NCBI RefSeq assembly: GCF_000151105.2
Contig: NC_014804.1
Location: forward strand, 1,514,567-1,538,566
Reading direction: 5' to 3'
DNA: 24,000 bases
DNA from: Thermococcus barophilus MP
GTDB taxonomy: Archaea; Methanobacteriota_B; Thermococci; Thermococcales; Thermococcaceae
Both the position numbers and the translations under genes were made by a program. The notes below the pieces were generated by a model that did no database searches, was not told the DNA's origin, and saw nothing but the letters and a program-made list of their open reading frames with translations. This document shows positions 1,478-17,503 of this stretch, piece by piece (positions within the stretch are counted from its first letter, which is position 1; each line of letters begins with the position of its first letter).

Positions 1478-2095
1478 TCAAGCAGAGCTCTCAAGCAGTC
1501 TGAGGAAAATTCCTCCAACACCTTCAACCATCATCTGCGCACCAATTGCCATCGTAAAGAGACCAATTATCCTGATGAAGACACCCAAAGTTGTCTTGCT
1601 TATGTTCTCTATCATATAGAGCGTCACAAACATCAGCAGAGCAGTCAGCAAAATCGCTATCAAGATAGCCGAGGCGGAGACCTTTATACCATACTCCGCT
1701 GTCAGGGTGATTGCAGTTGTTATCGCAGCAGGTCCTGCTATAAGGGGAGTTGCAACAGGAACAGCAGCCAAGGCTAAGATGTTCTTCTCCTTCTTGAGCG
1801 TTACCATGCCGCCACCTTCCAGTGCCTCAAGACCTATTTTAAACAGAACAAACCCTCCAGCAATCTTCAAGGCATTCAAGTCAATGTGAAAAATGTCCTG
1901 GAGGATTATTTTACCAGCTACTGCAAAAATTATGAGCAGGATAAAGCCGATTAAGTTTGCCCTGATGATGAGCTGCTTTATGTCTTCTATGTGAAAGTCC
2001 TCCCTAAGTAGGCTAACCAAGAGGATCTTATCGCTCGGATCAATCATGATTAGCATCAGCAGTGAGGCGCTGAGGATTTCTCCAATCATCGACAT
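1478..2095 (-). CDS. MarC/UPF0056 family integral membrane protein
   Basis: About 205 aa and almost entirely hydrophobic helices, with an AGPAAITT-type motif typical of MarC-family proteins. The ORF track starts at TTG 2098; the adjacent ATG at 2095 is more likely. Confidence 0.7.
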
Positions 2096-2131
2096 CAACC
2101 TTTTGAACGATGGCCAGCTTATAAAGTTATG

Positions 2132-2533
2132 CTACCTGTCTTTCATTAGCTTCATGAATTCATTGGGGGTGTAAACTTTGCTGTACCATTCAAAGTCTTT
2201 CTTGTTGTTTGTTATCAGCGGAGCGTTAAGCTTCACTGCTAACGCGCCTATCATGTAGTCTCTTGCGTTTTTTGAAAAATCCCATCTACCAAGAGCATTT
2301 TTCACAACAATCTTGGCACACTCATCATCAAATGGATAAACCCTTATTCCCAAGACATTAAGAAAGGCATCAACATAGGCTTTACCTTCCTCATAACTAC
2401 CACGCTTTTTTGCATGGTGGTAAAGGTACTCTATATACGCCACTGCACTCAGTATAGGTTCATGGGGACTTTTCTTAAGCCATTTGAGGAACTCTTTATC
2501 ATGAAGAACGTTTGTGTCAAGAACTATCTTCAT
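2132..2533 (-). CDS. vapC: PIN-domain ribonuclease toxin VapC
   Basis: 133 aa. The N-terminus MKIVLDTNVL carries the first PIN acidic residue, with further conserved acidic positions downstream. It overlaps the upstream antitoxin gene by 17 nt, the classic vapBC arrangement. Confidence 0.85.
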   Translation of the reverse strand: MKIVLDTNVLHDKEFLKWLKKSPHEPILSAVAYIEYLYHHAKKRGSYEEGKAYVDAFLNVLGIRVYPFDDECAKIVVKNALGRWDFSKNARDYMIGALAVKLNAPLITNNKKDFEWYSKVYTPNEFMKLMKDR

Positions 2534-2759
2534 CTGCTTTCCTCCTGAAAATTTTACTAAGCCCTTCCCTCATTTCTTCAGTGGTCTCATCAATGTCCTT
2601 TGAAAGCTCAGTCATTTCTTCAAGAAGGTCTTCGAATTTCATGATCACGTACCCTTCCTTAGTCTTGACAAAGACAACCTCATCACCAGCCTTTATATTG
2701 AGTGCCTCCCTAACCTCCTTGGGAATTGTTACTTGGTATTTCCTTGTAACAGTTACCAT
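2517..2759 (-). CDS. vapB: AbrB/SpoVT-type antitoxin VapB
   Basis: MVTVTRKYQVTIPKEVREALNIKAGDEVVF is a swapped-hairpin AbrB/MazE-like DNA-binding motif. The ORF track extends to 2810, but the ATG at 2759 has GGTGA 5 nt upstream, and the extra N-terminal 17 aa look like read-through. Confidence 0.8.
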   Translation of the reverse strand: MVTVTRKYQVTIPKEVREALNIKAGDEVVFVKTKEGYVIMKFEDLLEEMTELSKDIDETTEEMREGLSKIFRRKADEDSS

Positions 2760-2839
2760 TACAATCACCAAAATGTAATACCAAAATGAGGTTAATAAGG
2801 CTATCGTCACCTATTTTAATATGCGTCGTGGAGAATAAA

Positions 2840-3060
2840 GTATGCGATGATGAAACCGGGGTCTTCTTCACGTGAGTTTTCGTGAACCCACGTGAAGATT
2901 CATTCCCCGTGCAACGACGGGTGCCCAGACTTAGACCGTCCCGCCCACTCTTCTTCTCGTTTAGTTCGCTACGGCGGAACGGGTCGCCCGAACACCCACC
3001 GAGTTCAGCCAGCCCTCTACCTCGCCTTGCTCACAGACTTCATTGGACCGGCATCATTAC
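2840..3060 (-). ncRNA. unclassified GC-rich structured RNA with two kink-turn hairpins (ends approximate)
   Basis: Hand count over 2851-3060 gives 120/210 G+C (57%), versus 9/40 in the flanking 3061-3100. On the minus strand G=73 and C=47. Read on the minus strand the region folds into a nested structure. Closing helix: 3057-3052 with 2852-2847. Arm Kt-A spans 3051-3009. A central arm has helices 3001-2993/2923-2915 and 2982-2973/2945-2936. Arm Kt-B spans 2908-2858. Five G-U wobbles in these helices would be C-A mismatches on the plus strand, and the two k-turn motifs (AAU bulge plus tandem G-A/A-G) exist only in the minus reading. A BRE/TATA-like CGAAATACTTAAATA sits about 27 nt upstream of 3060 on the minus strand, and a T-rich CTTTATTCT follows the 3' side. 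Confidence 0.55.
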
Positions 3061-3100
3061 CAAAAACTATTTAAGAACATATGTATTTAAGTATTTCGGT
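3061..3100. promoter_or_regulatory. divergent promoter region with TATTTAAG direct repeat and imperfect palindrome
   Basis: TATTTAAG occurs at 3068-3075 and again at 3084-3091. ACATATGT (3077-3084) is the core of an imperfect 20-bp palindrome spanning 3071-3090. The first box lies about 26 nt upstream of the GGTGA/ATG of the RHH gene. The second, read on the minus strand as CTTAAATA with an upstream CGAAA, lies about 27 nt from the RNA 5' end. Confidence 0.35.
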
Positions 3101-3107
3101 GAATACG

Positions 3108-3269
3108 ATGGGAGTCATAACCGTGAAAATACCCGACGATTTAGAAGTGAGGTTCCGAAAGAAAATCCTCGACGTTTATGGCGTCAAAAAAGGAGCACTT
3201 GGGAAGGCGATAAGTGAGGCGATCGAACTATGGCTGGAAAAACACGAAAAATCCGGAGAGCGGAAGTAA
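3108..3269 (+). CDS. ribbon-helix-helix (CopG/Arc-like) DNA-binding protein
   Basis: 53 aa from ATG 3108, with GGTGA at 3098-3102. The layout is beta strand VITVKIPDDL, helix EVRFRKKILDVYG, turn KKGAL, then helix GKAISEAIELWLEK, which is the RHH pattern. The ORF track starts 9 codons earlier at 3081. The gene overlaps the next gene by 40 nt. Confidence 0.75.
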   Translation: MGVITVKIPDDLEVRFRKKILDVYGVKKGALGKAISEAIELWLEKHEKSGERK

Positions 3270-4291
3270 ATTACATAACCATAAAGACAAGACTCAAACC
3301 AGAAACAAAAGACGACTACTTAAAACTTGCACTCCTCTGCGAGAGGTTCAAAAAGGCAGTAGAATTAGCAATACGATTTCAACTAAAGGGTCTCAAGAAG
3401 AGCGAGGGCGTGAAAGAAATATCACGGCTAATCCTTAACAACTGGTGGTATTCTGATAGTGCGTGGGATTATGCGAAAATGTTGTTGAAAGGGACAACAC
3501 AAAACGGTGGGAATCCAAAACATATTCACCTGAAGTCAAAGTTCCTCATCAGCAAACCAAAGGAGAATGAAAACGGAAACAGAAACGTGAGAATGGAAGG
3601 GGTGAAGGTTAAAATACGCTCGAACGGGGAGTGGCTGAATTTCAAACTCAAAACAGTGGGAAAATTTCTTCCGGTTGTTCTCAACGCTCAAAAGTCCAAA
3701 TACGGTGCACAGATAGTCCTGAAGAATGGGAGGGCTTATCTGCACTTGCAAATCCCATTCTGGATTTATCTTGAGCATTTTAGGAGAACCACAAAGGGAC
3801 GGTTGTATGCGGGTTTTGACTTGAACTCGGACAGGGTGAATATGGTTATTCTAGACGAGAACGGGATTATTCGGGACGTTAAAGTTGTGCATTTTCCAGA
3901 GGTTAATTCTCCGGGTTTCTCTAAGTGGAAGGCGAAGGACTCAAGGGTGAAGGCTCTCTCCCAGCTACTTGACTATGCGTATTATCACGGTGTTAGGGTC
4001 GTGTTTTTTGAGGATTTAGAGAGGATTAAACGCAGGAATGGAAAGGCTGCGAGTTCGAGGAGAGGAAACAGGAAGGCGTTAAATTTTGCTAAGAAGGAGT
4101 TATTGGAACACGGGGTTATTATAGCGTTGAAAAGGGGCTTCGAAGTGTTTTTGGTTAATCCCGCTGGTTCTTCCAAGTTGGGAAAAGAATTAAGTCGGAG
4201 ACTGGGTTTTGACGTTCACTCATCGTCAGCATTCGTTATTGGTTGGTGGGGATTAAACTACCTGAAAACTCACAAAATAAAGAACAATTAA
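3230..4291 (+). CDS. compact TnpB-like RuvC-fold protein lacking the zinc ribbon (IS200/IS605 OrfB-derived, stand-alone)
   Basis: 353 aa. The N-terminus VNYITIKTRLKPETKDDYLKLALLCERFKKAV resembles the TnpB N-terminal strand-helix. RuvC-I is AGFD(197)LNSD, RuvC-II is VVFFE(261)DLERIK, and FLVNPAGSS (residues 307-315; VNPAGSS at 309-315) stands in for the NPAYTSQ motif. RuvC-III is GFD(328)VHSSSAFVIG, compared with DRDxNAAxNI. The whole protein has one Cys (C37), so no CxxC...CxxC zinc finger exists. No tnpA is adjacent. Confidence 0.8.
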   Translation: MAGKTRKIRRAEVNYITIKTRLKPETKDDYLKLALLCERFKKAVELAIRFQLKGLKKSEGVKEISRLILNNWWYSDSAWDYAKMLLKGTTQNGGNPKHIHLKSKFLISKPKENENGNRNVRMEGVKVKIRSNGEWLNFKLKTVGKFLPVVLNAQKSKYGAQIVLKNGRAYLHLQIPFWIYLEHFRRTTKGRLYAGFDLNSDRVNMVILDENGIIRDVKVVHFPEVNSPGFSKWKAKDSRVKALSQLLDYAYYHGVRVVFFEDLERIKRRNGKAASSRRGNRKALNFAKKELLEHGVIIALKRGFEVFLVNPAGSSKLGKELSRRLGFDVHSSSAFVIGWWGLNYLKTHKIKNN

Positions 4292-4315
4292 TTTTGGGCA
4301 CTGGATGATTGGTAA

Positions 4316-4942
4316 TTAGCGCTCGGTTGGCTGAGCCCTCTCAAAACGGTATATGTCAACCTTTATTCTCTCCAACCTCTTTCGATGGAAAAAGAACTGA
4401 GCTGGAATTTCAAAGTCAACTGTTAGTCGGTGCGTTATTGTAAAGCCATTATCCCTAACAAATGCCTCGATGAATTTCCTAACTTCAGGCTTTGCCAGAT
4501 GAATAGAATAGACAACTTTGCTTATTTCAAAAGCTTTGAGAAGAAAAGGTCTGTCTGCTTTTGGATTTTGAGAGCCAAAGGGAGGATTCATGATGACAGC
4601 ATCAGCTTGCTTATCAAAAAAGCTCACATCGGATAAAATCAACTCAACACAGGTTTCCACACTCAATGCCTTTACATTTTCCTCTGCTATTTTCAAAGCA
4701 CTCTCATCTATTTCAACAGCGTAAACCTTTTTTGCCCCCAAAAGGCAAGCTCCCACACTTAAAACTCCAGTACCTGCACCTAAATCGGCTATAACTTTGC
4801 CTTCGACATCACCCAAAGAATAAGCCAACCATAAAAGCTCAGCTGCAACGTTTCCCGGAGTTCTATATTGTTCGAGCTCTGCTTTAGGATTTTCAAACCC
4901 TTTGAGCCTTGAGAGGAGCATTGCAAGGTGCTTCTTCTTCAT
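4316..4942 (-). CDS. METTL5-like SAM-dependent N6-adenine RNA methyltransferase (COG2263 family)
   Basis: 208 aa with the SAM motif I DLGAGTGVLSVGA, an acidic loop AVEID, and the catalytic NPPFG motif (VIMNPPFGSQ). The N-terminus KAELEQYRTPGNVAAELLW is typical of the archaeal METTL5 homologue family. Confidence 0.8.
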   Translation of the reverse strand: MKKKHLAMLLSRLKGFENPKAELEQYRTPGNVAAELLWLAYSLGDVEGKVIADLGAGTGVLSVGACLLGAKKVYAVEIDESALKIAEENVKALSVETCVELILSDVSFFDKQADAVIMNPPFGSQNPKADRPFLLKAFEISKVVYSIHLAKPEVRKFIEAFVRDNGFTITHRLTVDFEIPAQFFFHRKRLERIKVDIYRFERAQPTER

Positions 4943-4944
4943 AG

Positions 4945-5325
4945 CTAACCCCTCATGTAGCGGAGCAGCTCCTCAAAGCGTATCTCAAACCTGAAGCCCG
5001 GAATGTTGTAAATTGTGCCAATTGTCGTTAAGATGAACATTACAACAACAAGCGCTATTATGAAGCCAAACTCCGCCGTTAAAGCCGATACAATCGCTTC
5101 CCTTGAGTTTAAGCCTGTGATGAGCAGCATAATGAAGAGGAAGAAAAAGCCAAGGAAGATATCAATGTAAAGAGAAATAAAAACACCAAATATTGAAATG
5201 GTTAAGAGCAGAAGCTTTCTTGGCTTCTTATATGTAAAAACTTCTATAGCGGTCTTTAAGAAGCTGTAGTACATGAAAATTAGCAAAACGTGAAGCGCAG
5301 AGTCCAGCATTATTCTAAGCATCAT
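4945..5325 (-). CDS. small hypothetical membrane protein
   Basis: 126 aa with three to four hydrophobic helices. It is tightly packed between dph2 (stop 5327) and the methyltransferase (start 4942), which suggests co-transcription. No family was recognised. Confidence 0.55.
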   Translation of the reverse strand: MMLRIMLDSALHVLLIFMYYSFLKTAIEVFTYKKPRKLLLLTISIFGVFISLYIDIFLGFFFLFIMLLITGLNSREAIVSALTAEFGFIIALVVVMFILTTIGTIYNIPGFRFEIRFEELLRYMRG

Positions 5326-5326
5326 T

Positions 5327-6370
5327 TCACCTCTTTGGAAGCTTTAGACTTATTCCAAACGGCTCGTCTTTTTCTCTCTTACCCCCAAGAATTTCATCAA
5401 ACTCATACTCTTCTCTCAAGCCAAGCAGTAGTTCAACTTCAGGAGGAGTTAATATGGGCTTTCTCCATCTCTCTGCATCGTCTATTGGAACTCTCGGACA
5501 GGCAACCACAACATAGGCATCAAAATCAAAACCCTCCAAAGCCTCTGGACTTATATAGTTCATTGCTATCAGTTGTGCTTCTCTCCCGTGCTCTTTCAAG
5601 AGTTTCATTATTCTCTTGGCTTCCCCTAAGCGTAGCTGACCCCTTTTGGTGCTTATTATTACGCCAAACTTTTTGGCATCATAAGCCTTAGCAACCATTC
5701 CCCATCTCTTTCTCACAATCCTCTCCGTATTTACCCAAGAGAAGTCTCCACTGTATGGGTTAATAGCTAACGTTGGCTTTTTTGTAGCTAAAGCAACACC
5801 AATTGGATGAAAATAGCCAGCCCCAATTAATAAAATCCCATCAACATCTCTTCCAACCCTTGCCGCTGTAAAGTTGCACCCCAAAATCTGTCCAGCAAAT
5901 GAAACTCTATTATCTCCTTTGCCAATGAAAACTCGGAAGCCTTTCCCTTCTAAAAACTGCTTTGCTCTTTCCAAATCCCTTATGTGCTGAACCGTGGTTA
6001 CAAGAGCAATTTTTCTGCCAAGCTTTTTAATCTCGTTTAAATTCTTCTCCAAAGCTTTCACAACATCAACCTTGGCAAAAGCAGGGACAAAGAGGGTTGG
6101 AACTTCCAGATTAAGCTGCATGTAAGAGTGACCCAAATGGATCAGAGCATCACAGCCGAGCATCTTAGCCTCTCTATCCGCTAAATCGCAAGCTCCATAA
6201 TTTATGTCGCCACTTATTATCGCTTCAACTCCGTTCTTTCCCAAAAATTCAGCCAAAGCTTGGGCTTCTTTCTTTAACCCTTCTGGAGTCTGAATCAACA
6301 CTTTCTTAGCATTCAGCTCTCTGATCTTTTGAAGTATCTCTTGGAAAGGAATCTCATGCAAGATACTCAC
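5327..6370 (-). CDS. dph2: 2-(3-amino-3-carboxypropyl)histidine synthase Dph2 (diphthamide biosynthesis)
   Basis: LHEIPFQEILQKIRELNAKKVLIQTPEGLKKEA...INYGACDLADREAKMLGCDALIHLGHS matches the radical-SAM Dph2 family as I recall the Pyrococcus horikoshii protein. The ORF track starts at ATG 6403, which sits almost on a TATA-like AAATATAAAG (6415-6406). GTG 6370 or TTG 6361 downstream fit the homologue's N-terminus better. Confidence 0.9.
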   Translation of the reverse strand: MSILHEIPFQEILQKIRELNAKKVLIQTPEGLKKEAQALAEFLGKNGVEAIISGDINYGACDLADREAKMLGCDALIHLGHSYMQLNLEVPTLFVPAFAKVDVVKALEKNLNEIKKLGRKIALVTTVQHIRDLERAKQFLEGKGFRVFIGKGDNRVSFAGQILGCNFTAARVGRDVDGILLIGAGYFHPIGVALATKKPTLAINPYSGDFSWVNTERIVRKRWGMVAKAYDAKKFGVIISTKRGQLRLGEAKRIMKLLKEHGREAQLIAMNYISPEALEGFDFDAYVVVACPRVPIDDAERWRKPILTPPEVELLLGLREEYEFDEILGGKREKDEPFGISLKLPKR

Positions 6371-6459
6371 TTTAACCCCTCTGTGGAGAAGCTTTGACCA
6401 CAAGCTTTATATTTCTAATGCTCCCACAATACATCGAAGTCCGAGGTATGGTGATCAAG

Positions 6460-7557
6460 ATGAGAAAGGTGGCACTAATTTTTATCATAACAATGCTCGC
6501 TTTTTATGCTCTTGCCCAACAGCCTTATGATGAAGTTGCAAAAGCAGTTTTTGAAAGCCTAAAAACTGGAAATTACTCAATTCTTGAGCCATATTTGGAC
6601 GAAAATATGAAGGAGGCTTTTAATGAAAAATCCTTCAATGCTTTAAGGGAACAGATGATTTCAAAATACGGCGGTCTTAAAAGCTTTGAATTCATTGAAG
6701 AAGGAAAATCCGGAAAATTTGCACTGGCGTATTATCGTTTTCAGTTTGAAAAAGCTAATGTGACACTAAGGCTCGTTTTTAGTCAAACCAACGGGGAATA
6801 CAAACTTTCCGGGCTCTGGATTCAGAAAGTTGTCTGGAGGGAGAAGGGAATTCCCCTTCCGTTGGCAGTCGGTTTACCTATTTTAGGTGGAATCTTAGCT
6901 CTGTTAACATTCTACACTCTCGGATTCAAAAAAATCAAAGGAGCGGAACTAATTTTAGGCTTCTTTTTGGTTGCAATAACACTTTTCATTCAGCCAGTAA
7001 TTCAGCAGGCTCCATTCTTAGCCTTAGGGATTAAATCAAACGCAGATATAACTGCTAAGGGGTTTGCTTTTACAGCTATCACAGCTATTTGGCTTGGATT
7101 CATTGCCGGATTCTTTCAAGAGGGCCTGAAGTATGCCTTTATGAGGAACAAGCGGCTTAAGGAAGCACTCTTCGTTGGAATTGGATTTGGGCTTGGAGAA
7201 GCGATCTTAGTGCCGTTGCTTCAGGTAGTTCAAAGCTTTATTCTGGGAGGATTAACTGTTCAGCTAACACAAGCACTGCTTAGCTTGTTTGAAAGATACA
7301 TTGCAACACTTTTCCATGGAGGAACCACTATTACATTGGCATACGCTTATAAGAATGGATTTGGGAGGAAAGCGTTAGTTGTCCTAAGCATTGTTCACGG
7401 TGCTATCGATACGTTTGCGTCATACTATCAGCTCACGAACTCCCAGATAAGCTTAATAATGACCTACGGCACAATCACTGCTATTACGCTCATACTACTG
7501 TGGTATGCCATTCCAAAAGCGAAAGTAGAAGGGGAGGAAGGAAAGGTTGTTTGGTGA
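6460..7557 (+). CDS. membrane protein: N-terminal extracytoplasmic domain plus polytopic CPBP/YhfC-like putative intramembrane metalloprotease domain
   Basis: Start at ATG 6460, with GGTGA 5 nt upstream (the ORF track starts at 6394). A signal/anchor MRKVALIFIITMLAFYALA is followed by a ~120-aa soluble domain and then 7-8 TM helices. These carry E/H motifs (FFQEGLKY, GFGLGEA, TLFHGG, IVHGAID) reminiscent of YhfC/CPBP glutamic/His intramembrane proteases. Confidence 0.5.
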   Translation: MRKVALIFIITMLAFYALAQQPYDEVAKAVFESLKTGNYSILEPYLDENMKEAFNEKSFNALREQMISKYGGLKSFEFIEEGKSGKFALAYYRFQFEKANVTLRLVFSQTNGEYKLSGLWIQKVVWREKGIPLPLAVGLPILGGILALLTFYTLGFKKIKGAELILGFFLVAITLFIQPVIQQAPFLALGIKSNADITAKGFAFTAITAIWLGFIAGFFQEGLKYAFMRNKRLKEALFVGIGFGLGEAILVPLLQVVQSFILGGLTVQLTQALLSLFERYIATLFHGGTTITLAYAYKNGFGRKALVVLSIVHGAIDTFASYYQLTNSQISLIMTYGTITAITLILLWYAIPKAKVEGEEGKVVW

Positions 7558-15561: not shown

Positions 15562-15639
15562 GGGGCCGTGGGGTAGCTTGGCCTATCCTTCCGGCTTCGG
15601 GAGCCGGGGACCCGGGTTCAAATCCCGGCGGCCCCACCA
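15562..15639 (+). tRNA. tRNA-Pro (anticodon CGG), CCA encoded
   Basis: Acceptor stem GGGGCCG/CGGCCCC. Anticodon stem CCGGC/GCCGG with loop TTCGGGA, giving anticodon CGG. T arm CCGGG-TTCAAAT-CCCGG, discriminator A, and a genomic CCA. A BRE/TATA-like CGAAATCTTTATAA sits about 30 nt upstream. Confidence 0.93.
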
Positions 15640-15738: not shown

Positions 15739-17503
15739 ATTTCAATTCTCTTAGAGTCTTATTGGAACAGAGGTAGTGGCTGATACGGTTAAGGCTACTT
15801 TGGAAGCTTTCAATTCTCTTAGAGTCTTATTGGAACTTGCAGTTTGTTAGGACGCACTTTTTAATAGATGTAGCTAAGTCTTTCAGAACTTTCAATTCTC
15901 TTAGAGTCTTATTGGAACTGTCGTAAATGCTAAGATTATTCTCGATAAAGCCGCCTTTCAATTCTCTTAGAGTCTTATTGGAACATCATTTGGGGAGCAA
16001 CAATCATGCTCTTTGGCATAATCTCTTTCAATTCTCTTAGAGTCTTATTGGAACTTTGTATTAGTAGCGTCAGCACTTGCAGCGGTTAGGGCTTTCAATT
16101 CTCTTAGAGTCTTATTGGAACCATTCTGAAGAAGGCTGGATATGTTAAACAAGTGACTACCTTTCAATTCTCTTAGAGTCTTATTGGAACTTCAAAGATA
16201 TGCTTAGCTATTGCCGCATCTTTGATCTTTCAATTCTCTTAGAGTCTTATTGGAACGCAGATTTGGATCGCTGGAGGGCCGTATTGGGTCGCAACTTTCA
16301 ATTCTCTTAGAGTCTTATTGGAACCTTGGTAACTGCTTTGAGTAACTGACTTTTCGCTAAGCCCTTTCAATTCTCTTAGAGTCTTATTGGAACCTCAAGA
16401 GCCACGACCATCACGCTCCTTCTTTATTTCTTCTTTCAATTCTCTTAGAGTCTTATTGGAACTTGACCCAGAAAGAGACCAAGAAGAAGAAGCGTTTTTT
16501 TACTTTCAATTCTCTTAGAGTCTTATTGGAACATAATCCTCTTAGGATGCAGCTTAATATCTGGGATATCCTTTCAATTCTCTTAGAGTCTTATTGGAAC
16601 ACGCCGAATGCGCTCACAGTTGAGCCTTGGATACCGGCGGATGCACTTTCAATTCTCTTAGAGTCTTATTGGAACTTTGCTCAGTGTAAAGTTGCCTTGC
16701 CAATTCAGCTTGATGATTGCTTTCAATTCTCTTAGAGTCTTATTGGAACCGATGTCCACCATTAAAGTGTGCTCGTAAGTCGTCAACTTTCAATTCTCTT
16801 AGAGTCTTATTGGAACTTCCAAGCCGATCCTTTTCGTGGAAAAAAGAACTCGAACTTTCAATTCTCTTAGAGTCTTATTGGAACAAGAAGAAATCGAGCG
16901 GTTGAAAGCGGAGCAATGGTCGTCTTTCAATTCTCTTAGAGTCTTATTGGAACGAGCAAGCTTGGATTGAGGTAATAGCTGCGTGCATCACTTTCAATTC
17001 TCTTAGAGTCTTATTGGAACACTCCGTTTGTAGTTACAAAGAAGAATTTGCCCTCATCTTTCAATTCTCTTAGAGTCTTATTGGAACATCCACATTGGTG
17101 TTCTCATTTTTGGAATAGTATTCACAATCTTTCAATTCTCTTAGAGTCTTATTGGAACTGCTCGAAGTATTCAATACAACATTTGTCAATATAACAGCTT
17201 TCAATTCTCTTAGAGTCTTATTGGAACTTTTATGATGATTTTGAGACAGCATTAGACACGGCAAAACTTTCAATTCTCTTAGAGTCTTATTGGAACTTAC
17301 TATTCATCGTCGGCTCACTTGTGGGCAAAAAAGCCTTTCAATTCTCTTAGAGTCTTATTGGAACTCTGAGAATCATTGCAACCTCACCTCAATGCGAATT
17401 TTCTTTCAATTCTCTTAGAGTCTTATTGGAACTGGAACCTGATCGGTTCCATCATCATAAAGAGTCTTCTTTTCTTTCAATTCTCTTAGAGTCTTATTGG
17501 AAC
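15739..17503 (-). CRISPR. CRISPR array, 26 x 30-nt repeats, 25 spacers; no cas genes in window
   Basis: Plus-strand repeat is CTTTCAATTCTCTTAGAGTCTTATTGGAAC, which reads GTTCCAATAAGACTCTAAGAGAATTGAAAG on the minus strand. In order from 15769, spacers are 38,52,36,40,37,39,36,38,39,39,40,38,45,44,37,38,39,37,37,41,39,39,38,38,41 nt. Only the repeat at 15739-15768 is degenerate (first plus-strand base A instead of C). This marks the leader-distal end, so transcription runs on the minus strand, consistent with the ATTGAAAG 3' end that gives the 8-nt crRNA handle in P. furiosus. Confidence 0.97.

Follow-up and report, generated by a model that had tools for sequence, protein, structure and literature searches.

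What kind of genetic unit carries the gene of a TnpB-like protein that has no zinc ribbon, no neighboring tnpA gene, and no room for a guide RNA at its 3′ end? This question is raised by a locus of Thermococcus barophilus MP (NC_014804.1, 1,514,567 to 1,538,566; the whole stretch of 24,000 nucleotides that was analyzed is called the window here), in which an open reading frame (ORF) on the plus strand, at positions 3230–4291, encodes such a protein of 353 amino acids. The original prediction, made from the letters of the window alone, described it as a compact, domesticated TnpB derivative with an intact D-E-D triad and without an omega RNA. Comparison with related loci indicates that the gene is part of an inserted element that behaves as a transposable element, and that a covarying structured RNA, encoded on the opposite strand upstream of the protein genes, ends exactly at the boundary of this element. 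We favor, with moderate confidence, the reading that the unit is an insertion sequence (IS) of the IS200/IS605 type (tnpB-only, IS1341-like) that works as an OMEGA element (for obligate mobile element-guided activity) with an inverted internal layout, a function proposed here from comparative evidence.

The inserted element and its copies

The comparison set consisted of 80 loci from species-representative genomes (loci are denoted L001 and so on), for which window positions 2000–5000 served as the BLASTN query; six Thermococcales and four Sulfolobaceae loci were collected in addition. L001 comes from an uncultured Thermococci genome, where window positions 2247–2859 and 4297–5000 have homologues (92% identity) that directly adjoin each other at a join that reads ...GACACCGG|CACTGG.... 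This empty site (...GATGATGACACCGG|CACTGGATGAC...) can be set against the left junction (...GATGATGAAACC|GGGGTCTTCTTCACGTG...) and the right junction (...AATTAATTTTG|GGCACTGGATG...) of the window, and the element and its right-hand surroundings are then as follows.

2858–4294, no strand assigned: whole inserted element of 1437 bp, delimited by the empty site in L001, with a 2-nt GG ambiguity (alternative 2860–4296)
4264–4294, plus strand: the other (right) element end, in and just past the C-terminal codons of the nuclease gene, where GAAAACTCAC is an inverted copy of GTGAGTTTTC in the left hairpin
4295–4298, plus strand: flanking GGCA, which is 5′-TGCC on the RNA-sense strand and recurs among copies; candidate target-adjacent motif YGCC

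Beyond the GG ambiguity, no target duplication was present at this one empty site. Both L001 and L002 hold their own copies at other places, and the match of these copies to the window starts at position 2858. In Pyrococcus kukulkanii (L083), taking out the equivalent 1438 bp restores an ATPase ORF of 457 amino acids, whose frame crosses the Walker A motif at the point of insertion (GRRRVGKT|ALAL). The original prediction had named single-copy, syntenic presence among the Thermococcales as a sign of domestication, and no such synteny emerged, as the nine Thermococcales copies occupy nine different neighborhoods. Several genomes contain three or four copies, and examples of multicopy genomes are those of Sulfolobaceae RB850M, Stygiolobus, Metallosphaera yellowstonensis, and Caldisphaera. 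Where copies from one genome were compared over their full length, they were 75–88% identical, and those of the Sulfolobaceae have the common ends AGGGGTC...GACGGC. Furthermore, protein-less mini-elements of approximately 300 bp were found (L055, 10201–10498; L039, ~2870–3160), which retain only the left ~200 nt, a TATA box (seen on inspection of L055), and the last 65–88 nt of the right end. Many Sulfolobales members lie on contigs of 1.2–2 kb, as is seen for repeats in assemblies. One Sulfolobaceae protein was located on nine contigs, which either shared the same neighborhood or were of repeat length, leaving recent movement unproven. A solitary RNA copy without a protein gene was also observed at L025 1540–1729.

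Taken together, the empty site, the varied neighborhoods, the split ATPase gene, the multicopy genomes, and the mini-elements mean that the element behaves as a transposable element and not as a domesticated gene, contrary to what had been proposed from the window. No second copy was found within the window, as had been stated. The reported lack of tnpA agrees with our searches as far as they go: no match to Y1 TnpA was obtained by tblastn in the window or in 83 loci, a weak check with an IS608 TnpA sequence as the query, and no transposase Pfam families were present among the annotated neighbors of the examined loci.

At its right side, the element ends 3 nt past the stop codon of the nuclease gene. 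The 24-nt gap from this stop codon to that of the convergent methyltransferase ORF (which ends at 4316) was correctly described from the window, and the terminal 236 nt of gene plus gap show no better folding than shuffled controls do (z = +1.55), so that the earlier view that a canonical 3′ omega-RNA arrangement does not fit here still stands. A subterminal inverted repeat, GTGAGTTTTCGTGAGT / ACTCACGAAAACTCAC, matches at 16 of 16 nt in L001 (5643–5658 / 7039–7054) and at 10 nt in the window (~2873–2882 / 4264–4273); one of its arms is part of the terminal hairpin of the RNA described below, the second falls within the final codons of the nuclease gene, and the repeat was seen in Thermococcales only. 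Directly past the right end, GGCA or GGCG was found in eight of the nine Thermococcales copies, in all seven Sulfolobaceae copies, and in several other clades, which makes at least 15 of 16 well-defined copies. The empty site assigns the C, at a minimum, to the flank, and the simplest assignment places all of GGC there.

The L001 copy (5560–7120) has on one side a PIN gene broken at approximately codon 97 and on the other the interior of a MarC-like gene. The ~430 bp that lie between these two points in the window are missing there, reflecting either an insertion-associated deletion or an assembly artefact.

A structured RNA at the far end of the element

Within the insertion, the leftmost 200 nt have a GC content of 62%, compared with 41% in the background, and most of the 80 loci show a GC-rich peak 260–360 nt upstream of the nuclease gene. 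The minus strand of this region folds with −94.9 kcal/mol (z = −3.84), and the plus strand gave z = −1.24. An alignment of the minus strands of three Thermococci and five Archaeoglobaceae-like loci (eight sequences) showed a conserved stretch that runs from a TATA-like box through the core GUGAAGUCGAUGAGCUAGGCGAGGUGGAG to an invariant GACCCC, beyond which identity collapses. The RNA so delimited is directed away from the protein genes, and its parts in the window are as follows.

2858–3064, minus strand: RNA scaffold of ~205 nt, whose 3′ end (...GAAGACCCC) is the element boundary and whose 5′ end was placed from the TATA box and the first helix
2865–2898, minus strand: terminal hairpin of the RNA and at the same time subterminal hairpin of the element end, with 14-nt arms that are 93% complementary, 7 nt inside the left boundary
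3086–3094, minus strand: TATA box of the RNA gene, CTTAAATAC
2838–2857, minus strand: candidate guide, which is flanking DNA (5′-GGUUUCAUCAUCGCAUACUU), its length set by analogy with TnpB

For the eight sequences, RNAalifold predicted 49 pairs, of which 20 showed compensatory changes; several of the predicted pairs are invariant U-G, that is, C-A mismatches on the opposite strand. The RNA contains nine covarying helices. The terminal hairpin corresponds to consensus helix 9, in which all eight pairs covary, so the statement that the locus has no subterminal hairpins did not hold. A covariance model built from these eight sequences yielded 46 matches in 81 sources, and every gene-proximal match was upstream and antisense to the gene, an arrangement that holds for more than 40 loci. 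These matches came from the Thermococcales, Sulfolobales, Desulfurococcales, Archaeoglobales, Aenigmatarchaeota, and Baldrarchaeota. With the filters off, five further clear matches appeared at the expected position and strand, with a weak one in L005, and all six additional Thermococcales and four additional Sulfolobaceae loci also matched the model. In the covariation alignment, 89.8% of the cells were paired, compared with 39–52% in slid-partner controls, 46 of the 49 pairs changed on both sides, and the covariation score was 0.46 as against at most 0.10 in the slid controls, although these pairing figures are somewhat inflated because the alignment was fitted to the model.

In nearly all clades, a TATA-like box lies approximately 20–30 nt upstream of the RNA 5′ end. 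The 3′ end differs among clades (GACCCC, GAACCC, GAACTC, or GAACGG) and is always followed by unrelated sequence. The conclusion that this locus has no omega RNA is not supported, given the covarying structured RNA that the other strand encodes upstream of the protein genes. Rfam contained nothing corresponding to it in window positions 2700–4400, even at E values up to 10, save for chance-level matches to a snoRNA and Yfr19. Two other candidates were considered for this region. A plus-strand RNA with a 5′ guide, similar to that of IscB, was ruled out by the folding z-scores and by the G-U pairs possible on the minus strand only, and the Sulfolobus "transposon-derived RNA-257" family (PMC3674436) was set aside because it derives from ISC1904, another element.

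Several observations were made in the DNA that adjoins the RNA. A C-box-like GATGATGA lies in the left flank (window 2843–2871, plus strand), where Rfam sR20 matched at chance level (E = 6), and a similar GATGATTGG lies in the right flank of the window copy and of L002; this is probably coincidence. A vapBC-like gene pair (window 2132–2810, minus strand; AbrB/MazE at 2517–2810 and PIN at 2132–2533) is located directly downstream of the RNA on the same strand, and read-through from the RNA promoter would enter vapB.

The nuclease, its active site, and its partner gene

The protein-coding part of the element and its promoter region comprise the following features.

3230–4291, plus strand: TnpB-like protein of 353 amino acids without a zinc ribbon, with D197 at 3818–3820, E261 at 4010–4012, D328 at 4211–4213, and H330 at 4217–4219
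3108–3269, plus strand: ribbon-helix-helix (RHH) protein of 53 amino acids, whose gene overlaps the start of the nuclease gene
3065–3096, no strand assigned: palindromic divergent-promoter region holding both TATA boxes, with 19-nt arms that are 79% complementary; the plus-strand TATA box for the protein operon is at 3067–3074

The 353-amino-acid protein had no match in the local Pfam copy, which predates the family model PF27229. In NCBIfam, TIGR01765 (TnpB N-terminal) matched residues 17–90 (E = 2e-20; score 72.6 bits, cutoff 47.25), and TIGR01766 and NF040570 (guided_TnpB) matched residues 234–316, both under their cutoffs. A search of 5.8 billion proteins returned 104 homologues, all of which contain PF27229 (SSO2105_N); identity was 75–79% for those of Thermococcus/Pyrococcus, ~55% for Archaeoglobus, and 35–46% for the Desulfurococcales, Vulcanisaeta, Staphylothermus, and Caldivirga. 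Among 1.84 billion representatives, a search with a profile gave 62 matches at E ≤ 1e-30 and 1087 at E ≤ 1e-3, with relatives of 400–600 amino acids among the wider matches, and the Sulfolobales branch comprised 604 clusters at 90% identity. When the AlphaFold2 model of the protein (predicted local distance difference test score, 87.8) was searched with Foldseek, the top match was Cas12f (E = 2e-10, probability 1.0, query TM-score 0.5–0.57, sequence identity ~12%), followed by Cas12k (probability 1.0, query TM-score up to 0.60); the core of the T. thermophilus RuvC resolvase was matched with a target TM-score of 0.67. The RuvC-II segment aligned to Cas12X in a profile search of PDB sequences (E = 4e-4). 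The TIGR01765 match, the Cas12f/Cas12k fold match, and the Cas12X alignment support membership of the TnpB/Cas12 superfamily, with the WED/REC plus split-RuvC layout, and the description of the protein as a compact TnpB derivative is thereby supported.

The sole cysteine of the protein is C37, and VNPAGSS is followed by KLGKELSRRLGF and then DVHSSSAF, with a short helix only before the last motif. A CxxC...CxxC zinc ribbon was absent from an alignment of 30 family sequences and from the relatives of 400–600 amino acids, and the relatives match just the first 28 positions of Pfam Cas12f1-like_TNB. The lack of a zinc ribbon and the single cysteine were therefore read correctly from the window, and the lack of a CxxC pair extends to the family. 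At L061 8632–9918 (plus strand) and at L024 ~1779 (minus strand), genes for canonical TnpB with a zinc ribbon (...CPKCG...CSCGYENDRD...) occur within a few kb of zinc-free copies, so both types coexist in those genomes.

The three RuvC motifs read AGFDLNS (D197), VFFEDLE (E261), and GFDVHSSS. In the 30-sequence alignment, which extends down to 36% identity, D197, E261, H330, and N280-R281-K282 are invariant, whereas D328 is kept in at least 90% of the sequences and is absent from one member. The first two catalytic positions of the original prediction were thus upheld, and its third, D328, was not. The wider relatives continue after VNPAYTS with ...GLSVHESAA..., ...NIDKDTAAA..., ...NLSRDTAGA..., or ...SLSKDVAAA..., so that the H330 position holds H or D and the D328 position holds S, N, T, or D. 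In two canonical TnpB proteins of the fetched loci, ...NDRDVIAVVNL and ...ADRDEVAVMNL follow CxxC...CxxC. On account of these canonical motifs and of the H/D alternation in the relatives, D328-x-H330 appears equivalent to the canonical D-R-D. Judged from these motifs, the triad is D197-E261-H330, with H330 at the position of the canonical catalytic Asp and D328 as an adjacent motif residue. An hhalign comparison of the family profile with the canonical TnpB of L061 aligned 27 residues and did not reach RuvC-III; the His/Asp question was therefore judged from motif variation. The same features, no C4 zinc finger and a RuvC-III Asp replaced by His, have been described for clade RIIIr-4, whose proteins were also predicted to be active (Altae-Tran et al. 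2023, PMC10691335). The conserved active-site residues of the present protein are compatible with catalytic activity.

A small ORF precedes the nuclease gene directly in the Thermococcales, Archaeoglobaceae, and Desulfurococcales loci. Nine of its 15 homologues match Pfam RHH_6 (best E = 5e-7), and public genomes annotate it with 53–56 amino acids; a 62-amino-acid ORF from 3081 in the window is probably an over-extended version of the same gene. In the Sulfolobaceae, an AbrB/MazE-like ORF replaces the RHH gene (L089 2350–2511; L055 ~5802–5963), so that one DNA-binding partner was exchanged for another without loss of the RNA or the nuclease. The palindrome at 3065–3096, which has a comparable counterpart at the same place in L048, is a plausible candidate for the RHH operator.

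Proposed function, alternatives, and relation to known systems

The OMEGA reading follows from the combination of a flanking motif at one end with the scaffold at the other, the lack of target duplication at the one empty site, the tnpB-only copies, and the mini-elements. In the sense of the RNA, the order is 5′-YGCC, the element end, the nuclease and RHH genes in antisense orientation, the divergent promoters, and the scaffold, which runs to GACCCC and meets the flank. The bidirectional promoter at ~3065–3096 would drive the RHH and nuclease operon rightward and the ~205-nt RNA leftward, and this RNA would run past the GACCCC boundary into the flanking DNA. Because the scaffold ends at the boundary and transcription would run on into the flank, the 3′ guide would be copied from the insertion site. 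The YGCC at the opposite end sits where the target-adjacent motif of a TnpB would be. The protein would bind the RNA, and the complex may recognize YGCC and, after it, the flank that matches the guide, in other words the site when empty or after excision. Cutting of the empty site and repair from an occupied copy would restore the element, resulting in its retention or homing. Repression of the divergent promoters, restraint of the nuclease, or both are probable roles of the RHH protein. As no transposase is encoded, excision and integration would have to occur in trans or by some other route. Whether the large zinc-free archaeal clade with a RuvC-III His (335–370 amino acids, hyperthermophiles) represents a distinct OMEGA architecture, in which a guide RNA of ~205 nt is a stand-alone divergent gene at the far end and is transcribed outward across that end to acquire its guide, with YGCC as the target-adjacent motif and an RHH/AbrB protein as the regulator, is in our estimation evenly balanced.

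Several points weigh against this reading. The 3′ end of the RNA, and hence the guide, was placed solely from the stop of conservation, and the pairing figures carry the inflation mentioned above. The YGCC could partly be the element terminus, given that one empty site constrains it, and GGC is absent at that position in the Thermococcales copy L087. The replacement of Asp by His in RuvC-III could change or abolish DNA cleavage. No transposase was found within 3–6 kb of the fetched loci (a weak test), there is no trace of very recent movement, the copies within a genome having diverged to 75–93% identity, and a published census scored the clade as non-mobile (PMC10691335).

The published description of the family offers an alternative that we regard as unlikely, namely a toxin–antitoxin module in which the nuclease is the toxin and the RHH/MazE protein the antitoxin, so that the unit would be an immobilized addiction or defense device with any guide located 3′ of the gene (Altae-Tran et al. 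2023). The overlap of a small DNA-binding gene with the nuclease gene in a tight, conserved operon, the patchy distribution, and the vapBC pair beside the window copy would all suit such a module, as would a published AlphaFold2 co-fold in which the RHH protein blocks the heteroduplex site (PMC10691335). However, there is neither room nor structure 3′ of the gene, where the element ends 3 nt past the stop codon, and the unit is an insertion with defined ends that gives rise to protein-less mini-elements. A conserved RNA of ~205 nt with its own promoter would also be left unexplained, and such modules feature neither a linked RNA nor defined element ends. Control of a transposon nuclease by an RHH protein fits the OMEGA reading equally well, and the two readings are therefore not exclusive.

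We are similarly doubtful that the Asp-to-His change and the zinc-finger loss have made the protein an RNA-guided DNA binder or regulator that does not cut, comparable to TldR or Cas12k, and that it, for example, directs a transposase or represses transcription. This idea has its attractions, since another residue takes the place of the canonical RuvC-III Asp, Cas12k ranks with the better structural matches, and an element that encodes no transposase needs some route of recruitment. However, hundreds of diverged sequences all keep D197, E261, and H330, which is unlike dead derivatives, and some RuvC resolvases have a catalytic His. The published analysis likewise predicts activity (PMC10691335).

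It is very unlikely that the conserved structure is something other than a guide RNA, such as a single-stranded DNA end recognized by a transposase or an antisense or regulatory RNA acting on the RHH–nuclease operon. Its location at the element end and beside the operon promoter is what would be expected in these cases, and the ends of IS200/IS605 elements do form DNA hairpins; however, nine helices over ~200 nt, with many G-U pairs possible on one strand only, far exceed an end hairpin. The structure also has its own TATA box, the RNA points away from the operon and is therefore not antisense to it, and both the RNA and its promoter are kept in mini-elements that have no operon to regulate. 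Finally, the model of the original prediction, in which a reduced TnpB, present once and independent of RNA, was domesticated for a host function, accounts for the one copy in the window, the lack of a nearby tnpA (a weak check), and the lack of a 3′ RNA, but can be dismissed in view of the empty site in a close relative, the non-syntenic locations, the disrupted gene, the multicopy genomes, the mini-elements, and the linked covarying RNA.

The family itself is not new. An archaeal "RHH/MazE-TnpB" group within RIIIr-4 has been described (Altae-Tran, Shmakov, Makarova et al., PNAS 2023, PMC10691335), and that study already reported the loss of the zinc finger, the rearrangement of RuvC-III, the lack of TnpA, and the RHH/MazE partner, so the protein-level oddities of the locus are not novel. 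The present element shares with that group the protein family, the occurrence in both euryarchaea and crenarchaea, the absence of a C4 zinc finger, the RuvC-III His, and the RHH gene (here) or AbrB/MazE gene (in the Sulfolobaceae) directly upstream. Whereas that study regarded the systems as immobilized, exapted toxin–antitoxin units with the guide in a long 3′ untranslated region, the present unit has defined insertion ends, no 3′ region, and an upstream RNA on the opposite strand that ends at the boundary. The evidence of mobility contradicts the account of an immobilized unit with a 3′ guide. In the literature searched on SSO2105, RHH-TnpB, and divergent TnpB guides, nothing was found beyond this study, and a paper on archaeal circular omega RNAs and the S. 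acidocaldarius RNA atlas report canonical 3′ omega RNAs only. Within the literature searched, the antisense RNA ending at the boundary, the defined ends with their YGCC flank, and the evidence of mobility thus appear to be undescribed.

With canonical TnpB/omega-RNA elements of the IS200/IS605 type, such as ISDra2, the present element shares the WED/REC plus split-RuvC fold, a scaffold followed by a 3′ guide from the flank (the guide being putative here), a short motif flanking the other end (a candidate here), the lack of target-site duplication (here at the one empty site), tnpB-only copies, and miniature derivatives. It differs from them in having no zinc ribbon, a RuvC-III His, an RHH/AbrB partner, and no TnpA seen nearby, and its RNA gene is separate and divergent, is served by a TATA box of its own, and lies at the far end, where it does not overlap the 3′ end of tnpB. 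The polarity of a 5′ scaffold and a 3′ putative guide matches that of TnpB and Cas12. The omega RNA of IscB/IsrB (HEARO) is also a large structured RNA upstream of the nuclease gene at a transposon end; however, it lies on the same strand as the gene, has its guide at the 5′ end, and serves a Cas9-like, unrelated protein, and Rfam HEARO gave no match here. Cas12f (type V-F) is the best structural match, is of similar size, and has a separately encoded RNA, as in many Cas12 systems, but it possesses a zinc-finger TNB domain, CRISPR arrays, and a trans-activating CRISPR RNA (tracrRNA). TldR proteins are likewise TnpB derivatives without TnpA; they have lost the catalytic residues and are fixed beside the genes that they regulate, whereas the residues are invariant here and the unit moves.

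In Saccharolobus solfataricus, ISC1316 has been reported as an orfB-only IS, 14 sequences of which were up-regulated during growth on phenol and which was predicted not to be mobile (PMC7820114). Considering the PF27229 name SSO2105, the similar size of 1.3–1.5 kb, and the multicopy "transposase" genes, ISC1316 probably corresponds to the Sulfolobales part of this family, and no description of an RNA for it was found in the literature searched.

If the proposed reading is true, the published view of this clade as an immobilized toxin–antitoxin system would be overturned, and the clade would provide compact, thermostable, zinc-independent RNA-guided nucleases with a defined scaffold. If the upstream RNA is the guide, TnpB systems would not be bound to an RNA that overlaps the gene at its 3′ end, and surveys that look only downstream of tnpB would misclassify whole clades as RNA-less or domesticated. 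The scaffold, the candidate target-adjacent motif, and the guide position would then be available for very small, cysteine-poor nucleases of organisms living at 80–100 °C, and these would also offer a natural case for how a His-containing RuvC site works.

Elsewhere in the window, a tRNA-Pro(CGG) gene at 15562–15639 precedes a CRISPR array on the minus strand (15739–17503), which comprises 27 repeats and matches Rfam CRISPR-DR6.

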